Source of the DNA: Desulfomicrobium sp. | Lineage (GTDB): Bacteria; Desulfobacterota; Desulfovibrionia; Desulfovibrionales; Desulfomicrobiaceae | Assembly (NCBI GenBank): GCA_040768745.1 | Contig: JAXGMI010000001.1 | Location: forward strand, 1,376,001-1,440,000 | Direction of reading: 5' to 3' | Length of the DNA: 64,000 bases | Program-made: the position numbers | Shown: piece by piece, positions 17,801 to 32,800 of the stretch | Numbering within the stretch: position 1 is the first letter of the stretch | Layout: every line of letters begins with the position of its first letter

Positions 17801-20800
17801 CGCACAGGCCGACCTGCACGGCGTCGACCGCCAGGGCCAGCTCCTCGGGCACGAAGACGCAGAAGGTGCCGACGATTTTGCGTCCCTGGGCCTTGGCGTC
17901 CTGCAGTTCCTTGATGCGCAGGCCGTGCACCTCGGACAGAACAAAGTCGAGGTACTCCATCCCCTTGAGCCGTCCTTGCTGGCTCATGTAGATATCCCCA
18001 TAGAACTTGCCCAGAACGGACAGGAGTCCGTCATGGGCGGCCAGGTCCAGATTCAGGTTCTCCCACATCTCCCGGTACGCTTCGTTGGTCATCGCTACCT
18101 CCATGGCAAATTTCCCATTCTTTGCTGGAAAGCGGCTTATGAATCAAATCAAAATATTGGATTTGTTAGCAGAGAAAAGATCGAATCTGTCGATGAAACG
18201 TTGGTGGGAGCGAGGGTATCGGTCAATGATACAGGATGGCGCAAAAAAGTCGTTTCCAGGATCGGCTTTTGGCGAAAAAATGAACGCCATGTTCTCTCAC
18301 GGTGCTTTTCAGGCCGGGTCGGATTGATGTTGCAGCCGCCTGCTTCAAAATGAAGCAGGCGGCCAGGAGGGAAGGGCGGCTGGAATGGCTGCGTCTATGG
18401 CATCGCCTGATGCCGGGGGACTAGGGCAGCATCCAGCTCAAGGGGTATGCCTGAAGATAGGTCAGCACGCTGATAAAGATGATCATCGCGATGGAGTGCT
18501 TCAGGGTGAAGAGGAAGAGGTTGCCTTCCTCGCCGACCATATTGGCCGCGGCCGTGGCCACGGAGATGGACTGCGGGGAGATCATCTTGCCGGTGACGCC
18601 GCCTGAGGAGTTGGCTGCCACGCACAGTTCCGGGGACACGCCGATCTGCTGGGCGGTGGTCATCTGCAGGTTGCCGAAGAGCAGGTTGGAGGACGTGTCG
18701 GAGCCGGTCAGGAACACGCCCAGCCAGCCGATGACCGGCGAGAAGAGCGGGAAGAAGTGGCCGGTCTGGGCGAAGGCCAGGCCCAGGGTGGAGCTCATGC
18801 CGGAGTAGTTCATGAGGTAGGCCAGGCCCACGATCATGGCGATGGTCACGATGGGGAAGCGCAGTTGCACCACGGTCTTGCCGAAGCAGGACACGGCGCG
18901 GCCGACGCCGTAATTGGGCAGCACGGCCAGGGACAGGATGCCGGCGATGAGGACGGCGGTGCCGGGGGAGGTCAGGTAGTTGAACTTGTACATGGCCTTG
19001 TAGACGGTGTCCTGGGCCACGACGGGCACGGTCTTGCTGATCAGGGAGTCGAGGCCCGGCCAAGCGAAGGTGATGACGGTGGACTTCATCATGTCCTGTA
19101 CGGGCTTGAGGCCCCAGATGAAGACCATGGCGGCGAGGATGACCCAGGGCATCCAGGCGCGGATGACATCACCCTGGGAGTAGTTGCAGACGGACTTGCC
19201 GGTGGAGGCGGGCTCGTTGGGAAAGCGCCAGATGCTCTTGGGCTGCCAGACCTTCAGGAACATGCCCAGACCGACGATGGTGGCGATGGCCGAGAGGACG
19301 TCGGGGAGCATGGGGCCGACGAAATTGGAGGTCACGAACTGGGTCACGGCGAAGCACAGGCCGGCCACGATGCAGGCGGGCAGCACTTCCATGGAGCGCT
19401 TGAAGCCGCACATGGTCACGGACAGCCACAGGGGCACGATGATGGACAGGAAGGGCAGCTGGCGGCCGGTGATGGCGCTGATGTGCATGACGTCGAGCTT
19501 GGTCAGCTCGGCCACGGCGATGATCGGAATCCCTAAGGCGCCGAAGGCCACGGGCGCGGTGTTGGCGATCAGGCACAGGCCGGCGGCGTAGAGGGGGTTG
19601 AAGCCCAGGCCGACGAGCATGGCCGCGGTGATGGCCACGGGGGTGCCGAAGCCGGCGGTGCCTTCGATGAAGGAGCCGAAGGCGAAGGCGATGAAGATGG
19701 CCTGGAGGCGGCGGTCTTCAGTGATGGTGGCCAGGGAGCTCTTGATGATCTCGAACTGTCCGCTCTCGACGGTCATGTTGTAGACCCAGATGGCCGTGAC
19801 GACGATCCAGACGATGGGGAAGATGCCGACGCCGGCGCCGTAGACGAAGGATGAGGCGGCCAGCTGGACGGGCATGCCCCAGACAGCCACGCCCACGATC
19901 AGGGCGCCGAGCACTGCCAGGCCTGCGGCGAAATGCCCTTTTGCTCTTTTCACCGCAAGCATGAAAAAGAGGATGTAAAGCGGAATTGCCGCAACAAGGG
20001 CAGATCCCACAATACTGTTAAAGGGGTCATAAACCTGAATCCAATTCATAGAAGCTCCAAATGCGTTAAAGATTGTGCCAAATTATCCCCAAAACAGAAG
20101 CGTTACGGCAAAAGCGATTTGCCGGCCTGCGCGGCGAACTCGTAGACAGGGCCCGGCAGGATGCCGAGGGCCAGGAGAAGAGCCGCGAAAAGTGTGCCAA
20201 GGGCCAGTCCGCTTTTCTTGGTTTCGAGCGCGGACGACGGGTCATGCGTGTAGGCATGGCGGACCAGGCTCAAGTAGAAGTAGATGGAGATGGCCGTGTT
20301 CAGGGCCGCGATGATGACCAGCCAGTCGTAGCCTCTGCCCCAGGTCGCGGTGAGCAGGAAGAGCTTGCCCATGAACCCCGCCGTGGGCGGCAGCCCGACC
20401 AGGGAGAATGCGGCCACTGCCAGGACAAAGGCGAAGACCGGGCTGCGCTGGTGCAGACCGTCCAAGTCCGAATAGCGGATGTTCCGGCCGTCCTTGGACA
20501 GATGGCAGACGACCCAGAAGCAGGTCAGGTTCATGAGGATGTAGACCAGCGCGTAGAACGAGGCCGAGGCCAGTCCCTCGGCGGTCCCGGCCACGAGGCC
20601 GATGGTGACGTATCCGGCGTGGGCGATGGAGGAGTAGCCGAGCATGCGCTTCACGTCGTCCTGGACCAGGGCCGAGAGGTTGCCGAAGGTCATGGACACT
20701 GCGCCCAGGATGGCCAGGATGGTCATGCCGGGCTGGCCCGGCACCAGAAGGGAGGACAGACGGACCAGGATGACCACGGCCCCGAGCTTGGGCAGGGTCG

Positions 20801-29800: not shown

Positions 29801-32800
29801 TCTGCCATTTTCTCGTGCATGCGGTGGATGTATCCGAGCACGGGGTCGGCGCGCAGAATGTACTCGCCGTCAATCTCCAGCATGACCCGCAGGACGCCGT
29901 GGGTCGAAGGGTGCTGGGGACCCATGTTCAGGATGAGGGAGTTGTCCTGCTTCCCCTGCTCGAAGTGCTGCGTATAGAATCCGCGCTCGGCGATCTGTTC
30001 CTTGGTGAACATCATGCCTCCTCCAGGGTTGCCGGAGCCTGGGCCCAGGGGAAGATCGTGGTCAGGGGGACCTTGTTCCCGTCCTGCTTTTTGAGCGGCG
30101 GCGTCTGGGCGTCGGGCGGCAGGAGCAGGGGGATGAGGTTGGGGTGCCCGGCGAAGGCCGTGCCGAAAAAGTCGCAGCACTCCCGTTCGTGCCAGTCGGC
30201 CCCGGGAAAGATGTCGGCGATGGAGTCGAAGGAGTTGTCGGCGCTCAAAGCCATGCAGCAGATGCGCCCGGGGCGGTCGAAGTGGTCGTAGTGATAGAGC
30301 ACCAGGGTGCCTTCCTGCACTTCGGACACGGTCACGTCTTCGAGGTGATAGCCCTTCCCGCGACAGAGTCTGGCGGCTTCGCGAACCTGGTCCGGCGGGA
30401 GCAGGACGGAAAAGGTCAGGCCCGTCTTGAGTGGGTCCTGGGCGGCGGTGAAGAGGCAGGGGAGGTCTTGAAGGAAATGCGCGCTCATGGCTCGATCCCT
30501 CCCAGAGCCTCGGGCCACCAGCGTTTCCCGGTGATCTTTTCCTGGAGCATGAAGAGCCCTTCCAGGAGTCCCTCAGGGCGGGGCGGGCAACCAGGGACGT
30601 ACACGTCCACTGGCACCAGGGTGTCCACCCCCTCGATCACGTTGTAGTTGGATTCCCCGGCGAACGGACCGCCGGAGATGGCGCAGTTGCCCATGGCGAT
30701 GACGTACTTGGGCGCCGGCATCTGTTCGTACAGGCGGACCAGGGCCGGGGCCATCTTGCGTGTCACGGTACCGGCCACGATCATGAGGTCCGACTGGCGT
30801 GGCGAGGGCCGGAAAACCTCGGCCCCGAAGCGAGAGATGTCGAAACGGGCCATGCCCACGGCCATCATCTCAATGGCGCAGCAGGCCAGGCCGAAGGTCA
30901 TGGGCCACAAGGACATGGCCCTGCAGATGTCGAGCACCTGCTGCGCCGGCTTCAGGTGCACCAGCGGCGGCTCTGCGCCCCTTACCGCCGGGGCGATACG
31001 CGGATTCGTCTGGGCCATGAGAACACTCCTTTGCTGGAAAAATAGAAGATCGCGGCGAAGAGCACGGCAATGAAGACAAGAACCTGCCAGAAAGGGAGCC
31101 ATCCCGAGGTGTCGGGGTACATGGCGGCCACTGGGAAGAGGTAAAGAACGTCGACGTCGAAGGCGAGGAAGATGAGGGCGTAGAAGTAGAAGGTCAGGCC
31201 GAATTGCACCCACGCCTGCCGCCCGTGCACCGGAATGCCGCATTCGTAGGATTCGGCGAAGGCGCCGCCCTTGGCCTTGGGGGCCAGGAGGAGAGACACG
31301 ACAATGGGCCCGAGTGCGAATGCCAGGCCGGCCGCCAGGAATGCCAGGATCGAGACGTTCATCCAACTGAAGACCATAGGAGACCACCTCTACGTAAATG
31401 GATCAATAAAAACGTATCGTTATAGCAGAATACAGCCTCGGCGATGTGCCCTCGGATTGCTCCGGCGCAGAAAAGCCAAGTATGTCATCGCTGCAAATGT
31501 CTCGAACGGGCCTGAGTGTCATTTCCGCGAGGCCGGGAATCTTTCATTTCAGGCAGTTGAAAAAGGCGAAACCCCTCGTTTCATGGGGATGACGACTTTT
31601 GCATCGATGACTGGTGCGCCAAAGGATGTAACTGTTACGTCTCAGGAAAGACTGTCACGACGGAAAGCATTGACAGCGCCATGTCAAAGCAAGGGCGGAG
31701 AAGGGATGTCGATGCCGCCGTAACGAGCGGGTAAAACAGCAGATGACAGTGGTGTGGAGTGGGACTTTCGGCGCAACAGATGGACGTACGCGCCGCGAGA
31801 TGGCCGCAAGGCATCGAGAGTGGGACAGCACATAAATAACCCCCCAAAAAAAAAGAGGCATGGACCATGAGGAGGCCTCACACCAAAGGGAGGTCTCCTT
31901 TCGATGCTTACGAGGTTAGCTGACGGGCTCGGGTCGAAAGGTACCCTACGCATGTGCGATTCGCCCCAAAGAATTGGGTCCCCCGCTTCCGCCATCGGCG
32001 GAACTCAGCAGTGTTGAACGTCACATAGTTTTGGTGACTTCGAAAGTCAAACGATATTGGTGCACACGCCCTCCGATTGTATTTTTCTATCTGAAATCAT
32101 TGTCGATAATGTGGCGTTATCAGACTGTGTCGATCTGCGGATAAACATGTGGTTTCGTGTTGAAACGGCTCTTGGTATTTCACGAAGAGCCGTTGTTGCC
32201 GTGCAGTCTCATCGGGAGAGATCACGCTGACGCCTTGGAGCTTTCAGGGGAAAGTTTGTAGACGAGGGCTCTTTCATGGCTGCCAGCGGCCGTATCAAGC
32301 CTGAACGGCTCTCCGATAAGGAAAAGTTGCGGGTTGGGGCTGAGTTCGCCTGCCTCCGCTTCTTTCCTGTAAAGGAGGATCTGGAGAACATAGAGAGCTG
32401 CTACCGCATTGAGAGCGTTTTTGAGATTGGCCTCCGCGAAATGCTCATGGCGTTCGTATTTTACCTTCGTGTATGCTCGCCACCAAAGGGGTTGCGTTTC
32501 AGTGCGCCACTTGTTCCACGGAGTCAGCGTCAGGCCGAATCTTGGCAGATGCACCTTGATTGCGCTGAAGTTGGGATGATGTTTTGTAATAACTGTTTTA
32601 TAATTGCCGATGTTGTCTGCCGTGCAGTTGTGCTCAATGGTATGACAGTATTTTTTTGCAACAACGTCAACTTCAGAGGCTGCCGAAAAAAGTATGCGGC
32701 CAAGTTCGATCGAATAACTGGAGAAGTTAGACTCGGCAATTTCTAAGAACCTGGAAAATTGTGAAAGATCGTTTTCAAGGGCGATAAAGTAGTTCCAATG

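Follow-up and report, generated by a model that had tools for sequence, protein, structure and literature searches.

A kup-like c-di-AMP riboswitch leader ahead of a NuoEFG-less complex I/Mrp-like operon in Desulfomicrobium

Results

The nuo operon and its aptamer

The window that we analyzed is a 64,000-nt stretch of a Desulfomicrobium genome (G000 below), and all coordinates are positions in it. Its minus strand carries 13 tightly packed genes, nuoABCDHIJK, two genes for MrpD-like proteins with a small open reading frame (ORF) between them, nuoM, and nuoN, with 4-nt overlaps at seven gene junctions. The first is nuoA (30982 to 31377; PF00507, E 4e-23), followed by nuoB (30485 to 31018, start uncertain; PF01058 and NF005012), nuoC (30012 to 30488; PF00329), nuoD (28858 to 30015; PF00346 and NF004739, 423 bits), nuoH (27899 to 28861; PF00146, E 8e-118), nuoI (27379 to 27888; Fer4 families, with TIGR01971 at 86.8 bits, under its cutoff of 113), nuoJ (26873 to 27382; PF00499), and nuoK (26568 to 26876; PF00420). 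In NuoL's place stands an MrpD-like antiporter subunit of 492 amino acids (25089 to 26567; NF006236, 788 bits, cutoff 663). Next comes the small ORF (24826 to 25017; 63 amino acids, or 85 from an upstream GTG), for which Pfam and NCBIfam gave no match. A second MrpD-like subunit of 592 amino acids with a long C-terminal extension (23058 to 24836; NF009310, 694 bits, cutoff 564), nuoM (21503 to 23038; TIGR01972, 576 bits), and nuoN (20103 to 21506; TIGR01770, 337 bits) complete the set. Pfam named 12 of the 13 products, as NuoA, B, C, D, H, I, J, and K and four Proton_antipo_M proteins; NCBIfam identified these four as NF006236 (MrpD-like), NF009310 (Na+/H+ antiporter subunit D), NuoM, and NuoN. 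NuoE, NuoF, and NuoG are not among the 13. These assignments bear out a preliminary description of the locus as 13 codirectional genes without NuoEFG and with extra Mrp-type subunits.

Upstream of nuoA, on the same strand, Rfam family RF00379 matched positions 31890 to 32020 with 97.8 bits (E 6.3e-22; gathering score, 38) over model positions 1 to 134 of 134, which confirms the full-length c-di-AMP aptamer described there. It is also, as claimed, the sole RF00379 match in the 3.09-Mb genome (99.99% complete). The genome encodes one c-di-AMP synthase with a DAC domain. The P6 loop contains the proposed 5′ strand of a pseudoknot, CCUUUCG (31935 to 31941), a perfect 7-nt complement to the proposed 3′ strand, CGAAAGG (31897 to 31903), which overlaps the tail hairpin described below by 3 nt. 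The two strands are kept as CCUUUCG and CGAA[A/G]GG in all eight leaders of alignment A2, and section 6 of PMC11963983 describes such a pseudoknot between the P6 loop and the 3′ tail for this class.

We found the aptamer in 7 of 35 Desulfomicrobiaceae genomes, all in one genus, in agreement with the earlier count. Three genomes (G009, G024, and G023) have two aptamers each. At 6 of the family's 10 aptamer loci, nuoA lies downstream (G000, G005, G010, G014, G009, and G024), so that the aptamer-nuoA order reported for other Desulfomicrobium genomes holds. The other four loci lack nuoA and have kup directly behind the aptamer. At 27 other loci in the phylum, the first downstream ORF was most often Kup (12 loci), followed by AA_permease_2 (9) and KdpA (1), and it was a nuo gene at none of the 27. 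Thus, K+ uptake genes do follow the aptamer elsewhere in the phylum, as had been proposed, but the four loci show that the kup association also exists within the genus. In G011, whose nuoA product is 85% identical to that of G000, the 577 nt upstream of nuoA present on the contig hold no aptamer; what had been treated as a possible contig-edge case is a real exception. Homologs of nuoA in two other genera likewise lack an aptamer. Thus, the operon does not need the switch.

The leader between promoter and nuoA

A promoter-like site, TTGACT-17 nt-TATGTG (32022 to 32050), precedes the aptamer. Its TTGAC is invariant in the six nuo leaders and in an alignment of four nuo and four kup leaders, which upholds the conserved site noted previously. 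If transcription began about 7 nt past it, the RNA would open with the aptamer. The site escaped the consensus scan because its second hexamer lacks the final T. Between the aptamer and nuoA, the scan found no sigma-70-like site, and there was no conserved sigma-54-like site. The insertion of 130 nt reported for the G000 leader is real and measures about 133 nt (31470 to 31606, limits approximate; alignment A1 columns 541 to 640 and 649 to 681); the stretch occurs once in the genome. This insertion and 140 to 306 nt of poorly conserved leader could hide an unrecognized promoter.

Folding places a tail hairpin, AGGAG-A-CCUC ... GAGG-C-CUCCU (31870 to 31899), at the 3′ edge of the aptamer. All 14 leaders, kup and nuo alike, have it as their minimum-energy fold (−11.1 to −17.8 kcal/mol, a stability matched by no more than 22 of 300 shuffles), and it is the RNAalifold consensus of the five group-1 leaders. 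A terminator-like hairpin (GGUGUGAGGCC / GGUCCAUGCC; 31857 to 31884; −13.1 kcal/mol in G000) shares GAGGCC with it and is followed, 2 nt on, by a run of nine U's (31846 to 31854). The preliminary description saw only a weak terminator here. However, all five group-1 leaders have this hairpin at −10.1 to −14.6 kcal/mol, 0 to 2 nt before a run of 7 to 9 U's, and 45 of 50 alignment cells (90%) are paired in it, versus 32 to 62% at slid registers. The nuo leaders of G009 and G024 and the kup leaders have no such U-run. The consensus scan did not call the terminator, and we saw no compensatory changes in the tail hairpin and none (0 pairs) in the terminator hairpin. Because the sequences are close kin, the case for both is one of conservation and folding energy.

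An anti-SD, GACCUCCC (31888 to 31895), pairs with the SD region at −14.6 kcal/mol in G000 (2 of 500 shuffles were as good), and 13 of 14 leaders give this duplex −10.7 to −19.5 kcal/mol. The anti-SD of the G009 nuo leader has decayed (−6.7 kcal/mol; 284 of 500 shuffles were as good). We propose that the tail hairpin, as an antiterminator, competes with the aptamer pseudoknot and the terminator hairpin and hides the anti-SD; in this sense a terminator/antiterminator pair can be drawn in the leader. Equilibrium folding of G000 gave the terminator and a sequestered SD even when the aptamer was not locked, with a probability of at most 0.19 that the SD is unpaired in any context. Thus, the ON state would have to be kinetic.

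The leader was said to hold no gene between aptamer and nuoA. In fact, its 512 nt include a conserved SD-like GGGGGGUU (31838 to 31845), 4 nt 5′ of an ATG and homologous in position to the kup SD, and a 49-codon ORF (31684 to 31833), in which we see a remnant of the kup 5′ end. The ORF has equal length in the five group-1 leaders and evolves about neutrally; its residues 38 to 42, YG[DGI]ID, correspond to YGDIG at 39 to 43 of Kup. Its being open is not significant (probability given shuffling, 0.23 to 0.40 in group 1 and 0.05 to 0.10 in group 2). Seven nucleotides past its stop, a hairpin, CUGUCA-N13-UGACAG, followed by UCUUUCC (31652 to 31676; sequence and alignment A1), is partly retained in group 1.

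Relationship to kup leaders

The kup leaders of G009, G024, G023, and metagenome contigs have a homologous TTGAC, aptamer (up to 96% identical), tail hairpin, anti-SD, SD, and start codon, and alignment A2 likewise shows TTGAC, aptamer, platform, and SD plus ATG common to nuo and kup leaders. They differ in what follows the SD, a full transporter of 632 to 647 amino acids in kup leaders versus a 49-codon stump and then nuoA-N here, and in the run of 7 to 9 U's added in group-1 nuo leaders. Behind the ATG, the G009 nuo leader aligned to kup coding sequence with z scores of 11.5 and 9.9 and that of G024 with 5.1 to 5.8, and none of 200 dinucleotide shuffles reached these scores; for G000, z was only 0.9 to 1.7. 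A kup DNA profile matched G009, G024, G010, and mg19 on the expected diagonal, above all 300 shuffles, and gave no match in the G000, G005, and G014 leaders. With an HMM of the Kup N terminus, shuffles did as well in 15 of 2,000 cases for G000, 1 of 2,000 for mg19, and 2 of 2,000 for G010, and all group-1 alignments were offset equally from the start codon. Pfam matched none of the six leader ORFs. Thus, the ORF looks like a decayed kup 5′ end, a reading well supported in G009 and G024 and weaker for G000, where the link to kup runs through the G010 and mg19 orthologs. A kup leader of the same genus or phylum is the likely source of the nuo leader. The kup gene itself is absent from G000, G005, G014, and G010 and present in G009.

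We compared the aptamer with neutral sites. Among the six nuo leaders, aptamers are 83 to 98% identical, versus 48 to 88% at four-fold sites of nuoA for the same pairs; between G000 and G009, 84% of aptamer positions match, compared with 48% of four-fold sites, 48% of the relic ORF, and 36% of the other leader sequence. The aptamer changes at a much lower rate than neutral sites while the relic ORF drifts, and we conclude that selection acts on the aptamer. Genomes without kup lack a second aptamer copy that could serve for gene conversion.

Discussion

We think that a captured kup leader probably stands ahead of the nuo/Mrp-like operon, with its aptamer still working as an OFF switch. About 420 nt comprising promoter, aptamer, expression platform, SD, start codon, and the first 50 to 65 codons would have been copied from a kup locus to a point about 45 to 60 nt upstream of the nuoA ATG, and the stump would since have decayed to a short ORF while the aptamer was retained. 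When c-di-AMP is absent, the AGGAG of the aptamer's 3′ tail would close the hairpin at 31870 to 31899, so that the terminator's left arm and the anti-SD are both occupied; RNA polymerase would therefore continue into nuoA-N and the relic ORF would be translated. Bound c-di-AMP would draw the tail into the pseudoknot (CCUUUCG with CGAAAGG), so that the terminator hairpin (31857 to 31884) and U9 form, and in transcripts escaping termination GACCUCCC would pair with the SD. The G009 and G024 leaders have no U-run; there, a silenced relic ORF would affect nuo by way of Rho-dependent polarity, the leader being C-rich (C/G, 1.35 to 2.44). Rho is encoded in the genome. In the mgtA/mgtL and ribB systems, termination by Rho is coupled to a riboswitch or leader ORF, and when a short leader ORF is not translated, C-rich RNA becomes exposed to Rho and the operon is silenced. 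We propose the same route for G009 and G024, with a gene fragment in place of a dedicated sensor peptide. Since promoter and switch would have been copied together, the energy-conserving complex is probably turned down at high c-di-AMP and made at low c-di-AMP, the condition that turns on K+ uptake genes. The nuo operon may belong to the cation/osmotic regulon, as suggested before; because the linkage would have arisen by copying of a kup leader, this target could also be an accidental acquisition.

We weighed other readings of the same leader. The aptamer could be functional and gate only the short relic transcript or ORF, with nuo served by its own unrecognized promoter in the spacer of 150 to 300 nt, in which case c-di-AMP would have little effect on nuo. 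The spacer between relic ORF and nuoA is long and poorly conserved (36 to 69% identity between groups) and in G000 tolerates the 133-nt insertion, the operon lacks the switch in G011 and other genera, and the G009 nuo leader has lost its anti-SD complementarity. Yet the aptamer is kept at 83 to 98% with no other downstream beneficiary, the relic ORF being neutral, the spacer lacks a sigma-70-like or conserved sigma-54-like site, and the U-run gained behind the hairpin in group 1 matters only for downstream transcription. We therefore consider a separate nuo promoter unlikely.

Decidedly improbable, in our view, is that the leader product is itself the function, either as a terminated RNA acting in trans (a small RNA or c-di-AMP buffer) or as a c-di-AMP-regulated micro-protein of 49 amino acids. 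Aptamer and terminator would yield a stable short RNA, ORF length is constant, and a C-terminal YG-ID-PSPPLL is conserved in all five group-1 ORFs, with some synonymous changes. However, substitutions are spread evenly over codon positions (e.g., 13/17/18 and 15/13/22), the N-terminal half is not conserved, the group-2 ORFs (63 amino acids) are unlike group 1 past the first residues, and the leader ORF has no Pfam match. The conserved C terminus coincides with the Kup motif and can thus be inherited rather than selected. The absence of kup from G000 and the clear decay of its stump would fit a dead aptamer left over from a lost kup, which neither binds nor regulates and is decaying. Against this stand 97.8 bits across the whole model, a conservation in six genomes (four of them without kup) that far exceeds that of neutral sites, and the invariant promoter TTGAC, and we give this reading very little credence.

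The proposed switch, a captured kup leader acting on nuo, resembles known systems in part. According to PMC6488665, c-di-AMP promotes termination ahead of the Bacillus thuringiensis kdpFABC operon. There, too, an aptamer of this class sits in the 5′ leader of a multigene operon for a membrane complex, and intrinsic termination with c-di-AMP and read-through at low levels is the logic that we propose for group-1 leaders. The target there is a K+ transporter, unlike the complex I-like/Mrp-like redox module here, and the nuo leader, as judged from its sequence, also contains the relic ORF and the SD that goes with it. In the Thermoanaerobacter pseudethanolicus translational OFF switch (PMC11963983), the long-range 3′-tail pseudoknot decides ribosome access to the SD, as it would here; there, the SD is the 3′ strand of the pseudoknot, whereas in the nuo leader a separate anti-SD comes after CGAAAGG and the SD about 50 nt later, and a terminator is added. 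In the OFF switches of PMC9337991, alternative pairing joins nucleotides from the 3′ side of the aptamer to a terminator's left arm. In the tandem Na+/c-di-AMP riboswitch of Dehalobacter sp. CF and the Bacillus subtilis ydaO type treated there, nucleotides in P1's right shoulder and in the pseudoknot pair alternatively with that arm and ligand causes termination, both as proposed here; the downstream genes differ, and in the nuo leader the alternative pairing takes the form of a self-contained hairpin, which masks the anti-SD as well.

Excerpts of PMC11238625 and PMC4287179, which do not mention riboswitch control, describe 11-subunit complex I-like enzymes without NuoEFG, the NADH-oxidizing module, in strict anaerobes and Desulfovibrio, with ferredoxin as the proposed donor. 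These share nuoABCDHIJK and nuoMN with the operon here, in which NuoL is replaced by two MrpD-like proteins whose genes flank a small ORF.

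A c-di-AMP aptamer heads a complex I-like operon

The preliminary description placed a c-di-AMP riboswitch at the head of a nuo/Mrp-like operon. Our cmscan match and gene calls confirmed this arrangement, and the aptamer and gene set were correctly described as judged by cmscan, Pfam, and NCBIfam. The aptamer (window 31890-32020, minus strand) matches RF00379 (ydaO/yuaA) with 97.8 bits and an E value of 6.3e-22 over model positions 1-134 of 134, so that it clears the gathering score of 38 over the whole model. It is the single RF00379 match across the 3.09-Mb genome studied here (G000, 99.99% complete), and it is an ordinary member of the family. 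Riboswitches of this class bind two molecules of c-di-AMP. One DAC-domain cyclase is encoded in the G000 genome. We found that CCUUUCG in the P6 loop (31935-31941) is perfectly complementary to CGAAAGG in the 3' tail (31897-31903). This complementarity is kept in 8/8 aligned leaders, with one G-U pair in some of them and with no covariation. The Rfam structure line for RF00379 carries no pseudoknot; in the available text of one report, the long-range pseudoknot of the class occupies this same P6-loop/3'-tail position (PMC11963983).

Downstream of the aptamer lie 13 same-strand ORFs (20103..31377, minus strand), in which Pfam identified nuoA, B, C, D, H, I, J, and K and four Proton_antipo_M proteins. 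NCBIfam assigned one MrpD-like protein to NF006236 (788 bits, cut-off 663) and a second, a Na+/H+ antiporter subunit D, to NF009310 (694 bits, cut-off 564), with NuoM (TIGR01972) at 576 bits and NuoN (TIGR01770) at 337 bits. NuoL models gave only 124-220 bits with the antiporter-like proteins of the operon, against cut-offs of 407-556. The operon thus encodes 10 of the 11 subunits of the NuoEFG-less complex (A, B, C, D, H, I, J, K, L, M, and N), with two MrpD-like proteins replacing NuoL, and NuoE, F, and G are absent from it. With respect to the seven-subunit Mrp (Mnh/Pha) set, MrpA-G, we found MrpD-like subunits only, and no operon ORF had a Pfam match to the MrpB, C, E, F, or G family. Seven of the gene junctions are 4-nt overlaps, as expected for a single operon. 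NuoEFG-less complexes occur in Desulfovibrio and other strict anaerobes, and ferredoxin is proposed as their donor in the available parts of two reports (PMC4287179, PMC11238625).

A small ORF (24826-25017, minus strand; 63 amino acids, or 85 from an upstream GTG) separates the two MrpD-like genes. It matches no Pfam or NCBIfam family; its product looks like a membrane peptide and may be an unrecognized subunit of the NuoL-less complex. On the other side of the operon (16815-20049, minus strand) are a lactate permease gene (PF02652, E 4e-178), which starts 53 nt past nuoN on the same strand, and then a homologue of the 2-hydroxyglutaryl-CoA dehydratase D-component. This region could be cotranscribed with nuo in G000. 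In the congener G009, an MMPL gene and kup, the K+ transporter gene, take the place of the lactate permease, which is therefore outside the conserved set.

Aptamers of the genus precede either nuoA or kup

Of 35 family genomes, 7 have the aptamer, at a total of 10 loci, and these 7 belong to one genus. At six of these (G000, G005, G010, G014, G009, and G024), nuoA lies 375-512 nt downstream. The other four (the second aptamer of G009, that of G024, and the two of G023) are directly followed by kup, full length or cut by the contig end, with K_trans E values from 1e-152 to 3e-186. In G009 (C1:22500-42400), kup, an MMPL gene, and nuoN-A are flanked by two aptamers that face each other across 17 kb. 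One stands before kup and the other before a short ORF and nuoA-N, with the MMPL gene separating kup from nuoN. The arrangement suggests that the kup leader was partially duplicated in inverted orientation.

A scan of metagenomes with the aptamer pattern returned 11 loci, at which we found nuoA (three), kup (five), or a 475-amino-acid ORF (one, L015); two were cut short. In our phylum sample, 24 of 151 genomes have the aptamer. We tallied the first ORF of at least 70 amino acids starting no more than 700 nt downstream at 27 loci outside G000. It encoded Kup at 12, AA_permease_2 at 9, KdpA at 1, a protein of lytic transglycosylase type at 2, and a protein without a family at 3; a nuo gene was the first such ORF at 0 of the 27. 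Another genome of the order (G075:C3:511433-513918) has two same-strand aptamers 2.3 kb apart, the first before an AA_permease_2 gene and the second before a 492-amino-acid ORF without a Pfam match.

nuoA itself is more widespread, being present in 11 of 35 family genomes. The NuoA of the congener G011 (C322:1-1457) is 85% identical to that of G000, and there is no aptamer in the 577 nt of contig upstream of its nuoA and no kup in that genome. Its upstream sequence is unrelated to the other leaders except for the last ~45 nt before the ATG, which are common with G009 and G024. G011 offers a natural version of the operon that lacks the switch. Homologues of nuoA in two other genera (56-65% identity) likewise have no aptamer nearby.

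The leader ORF is likely a relic of kup

Alignment of the six nuo leaders revealed a conserved Shine-Dalgarno (SD)-like run and an ATG 54-60 nt past the aptamer. In group 1 (G000, G005, G010, G014, and the metagenome contig L019), the ATG opens a 49-codon ORF (31684..31833, minus strand, in G000); in group 2 (G009 and G024), the ORF has 63 codons. The nuo leaders and the four kup leaders of the genus have in common the -35 TTGAC, the aptamer, the sequence that follows it, the SD, and the start codon, and the leader ORF aligns onto the 5' end of kup.

We judged the post-ATG nucleotide alignment to kup against 200 dinucleotide shuffles. The G009 nuo leader gave z values of 11.5 and 9.9 and that of G024 gave 5.1-5.8; G005 reached 4.6, G010 gave 2.2-2.7, G000 gave 0.9-1.7, and G014 gave none. 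Strict local alignment (+1/-1) of the G000 or G014 post-aptamer sequence with kup was not significant (z of -1.4 to 2.1). A kup DNA profile matched G009, G024, G010, and mg19, an orthologue of the G000 ORF, on the expected diagonal and above 300/300 shuffles, with no match in G000, G005, or G014. We also built an HMM from five Kup N-termini and counted, for each ORF, how many of 2000 shuffles reached its score: 0 for G009, 1 for mg19, 2 for G010, 15 for G000, 79 for G005, 110 for G014, and 344 for G024. Every group-1 HMM alignment places YG[DGI]ID (residues 38-42) on Kup YGDIG (39-43). None of the six small ORFs matched any Pfam family, including Kup/K_trans (PF02705), at E values up to 10; they are kup remnants rather than members of the Kup family. 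We take descent from kup as established for group 2 and likely for G000, the latter because its ORF is orthologous to those of G010 and mg19.

G009 has one kup gene, and kup is absent from G000, G005, G014, and G010, the last of which is only 63% complete. Among K+ genes, G000 encodes two TrkH-family proteins and neither KdpA nor Kup. Substitutions in the relic ORF are spread evenly across the three codon positions. That the frame has stayed open has no significance as evidence of selection: in this C-rich stretch (leader C/G 1.35-2.44), stop codons are rare. The kup stump is now at most a spacer or a leader ORF.

Further along, the G000 leader alone carries ~133 nt in two alignment blocks (about 31470-31606, minus strand). 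We considered a repeated mobile element; the insertion has a single copy in the genome. A hairpin, CUGUCA-N13-UGACAG (31652-31676, minus strand), begins 7 nt past the stop codon of the relic ORF, with a U/C-rich stretch (UUCUUUUUUG in G014) behind it. Its left arm would be covered by a ribosome that terminates at that stop codon, so the hairpin may be a second, translation-sensitive attenuator.

The aptamer is conserved about as well as coding positions

We compared pairwise identities by region among the six nuo leaders and their nuoA genes. Identity was 83-98% for the aptamer (G000 versus G009, 84%), 87-99% for nuoA codon positions 1 and 2 (90%), and 48-88% for nuoA four-fold sites (48%). 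It was 46-92% for the relic ORF (48%) and 36-93% for the rest of the leader (36%). Constraint on the aptamer is thus about equal to that on protein-coding positions, while the relic ORF drifts. If the aptamer were a dead remnant left over from kup, it would be expected to decay with its surroundings. However, its identity is near the coding-position level, and the kup-less genomes have no second copy from which it could be restored by gene conversion. We therefore count this explanation out as highly improbable.

The proposed platform combines a tail hairpin, a terminator-like hairpin, and a sequestered SD

Column-wise pair counting across 14 platforms had to be abandoned, as the MAFFT alignment was out of register. 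Therefore, we folded the 14 kup and nuo platforms one by one. A tail hairpin (31870-31899, minus strand), in which AGGAG-A-CCUC pairs with GAGG-C-CUCCU, was the minimum-energy fold in 14/14 leaders (-11.1 to -17.8 kcal/mol), and no more than 22 of 300 shuffles were as stable. It is also the RNAalifold consensus of the five group-1 platforms, among which there was no covariation. The anti-SD lies within this hairpin, which also has 3 nt in common with the pseudoknot strand. GAGGCC of the tail hairpin is reused in the left arm of a terminator-like hairpin (31857-31884, minus strand; -13.1 kcal/mol in G000). All five group-1 leaders have this second hairpin (-10.1 to -14.6 kcal/mol), and 0-2 nt separate its end from a run of 7-9 U. 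Its pairing fills 45 of 50 alignment cells, compared with 32-62% at slid registers, with 0 compensatory pairs; a simple consensus scan did not call the G000 terminator. Neither the group-2 nuo leaders nor the kup leaders have the U-run. In one lineage, the U-run apparently shifts an SD-sequestering design to a terminator design.

The anti-SD GACCUCCC (31888-31895) and the SD GGGGGGUU (31838-31845) form a duplex of -14.6 kcal/mol in G000. Among 14 leaders, 13 have an equivalent duplex of -10.7 to -19.5 kcal/mol; the exception is the G009 nuo leader, where the anti-SD has decayed and the duplex has -6.7 kcal/mol. Equilibrium folding favored an OFF-like fold with the SD paired in every context and did not set an ON state apart from an OFF state; the ON state must therefore be kinetic.

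c-di-AMP probably represses the operon

Without ligand, the tail hairpin would act as an antiterminator and would also hide the anti-SD. With ligand, the pseudoknot would take the tail, the terminator would form, and the anti-SD would close the SD. This two-state scheme agrees with the logic of the class as far as it is laid out in the available text of two reports (PMC9337991, PMC6488665). In group 2, silencing of the relic ORF would reach nuo through Rho-dependent polarity, the sole route visible to us there; Rho is encoded, and the C-richness of the leader would suit this route.

We favor a selected c-di-AMP switch, inherited from kup, that probably represses the nuo/Mrp-like operon at high c-di-AMP levels. 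The main rival is that an unrecognized promoter within the leader drives nuo and makes the switch a bystander, which we regard as unlikely. Our scan found no sigma-70-like site between the aptamer and nuoA, and no sigma-54-like site there is conserved. A 181-nt contig of metatranscriptome X4, 100% identical, covers 31755-31935, a stretch that starts in the middle of the aptamer, takes in the U-run and SD, and reaches the relic ORF. It is compatible with read-through and also with DNA. Because DNA in the library is possible and contigs carry no levels, we set it aside as evidence. Run X5 had relatives' aptamers only, and run X1 is probably DNA. A contig of X6 (window 30900-31377) carries a relative's nuoA, with 19 differences in 296 nt. 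Upstream, it diverges from the window precisely from the nuoA start (31377), which indicates another environmental leader variant.

The preliminary description had read the operon as part of a c-di-AMP cation/osmotic regulon. This interpretation is supported in part and sharpened: the aptamer is real and selected and probably came from kup, and the operon may belong to such a regulon. A further step would be that the capture was adaptive, the NuoEFG-less complex with its two extra MrpD-like subunits having taken over part of K+/Na+ homeostasis in the kup-less G000, G005, and G014. We consider this doubtful, and rather improbable on present evidence. Were it true, the complex could be a redox-driven cation pump or a supplier of proton motive force for K+ uptake. 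The adaptive capture would then explain both the inherited kup switch and the U-tract conversion, translational to transcriptional, in one lineage. Sulfate reducers would also have a direct link between c-di-AMP signaling and respiratory energy conservation, and the capture would provide a dated, stepwise case of a riboswitch changing its target and its mechanism.

Relation to known c-di-AMP riboswitches

In the literature that we examined, targets of c-di-AMP riboswitches are K+ and osmolyte transporters and cell-wall enzymes. The available parts of two reports describe an OFF switch that acts on the multigene kdpFABC operon through termination (PMC6488665) and a pseudoknot-dependent translational switch (PMC11963983). 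The switch described here differs from the known ones in its target, a complex I-like operon with two MrpD-like subunits; in its visible origin, a kup leader with a gene stump; and in the apparent move from SD sequestering to a terminator within one lineage. In full-text literature, we found no paper that links a c-di-AMP riboswitch to nuo, NADH dehydrogenase, complex I, Mrp, or Desulfovibrio, although the gene-association tables of Nelson 2013 and Block 2010 could already list such a case; PMC8388888 mentions both ydaO and nuo without linking them. As a target, the complex I-like/Mrp-like operon would be of a new kind and would connect energy conservation in anaerobes with a K+/osmotic messenger. 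The locus records rewiring in which the kup leader was copied together with the stump of its gene. The genus supplies natural controls, with kup behind the switch, nuo behind the switch, and nuo without the switch (G011), which makes the idea directly testable.

Two further features lie upstream of the riboswitch. A 201-amino-acid ORF (window 32222-32827, minus strand) without a Pfam match is located directly upstream of its promoter. At a distance of 2.6 kb upstream of the aptamer is a pair of adjacent tRNA genes (window 34633-34790, minus strand; 68.3 and 60.8 bits). Integration often occurs at tRNA genes, and this pair may be relevant to the arrival of the nuo region.
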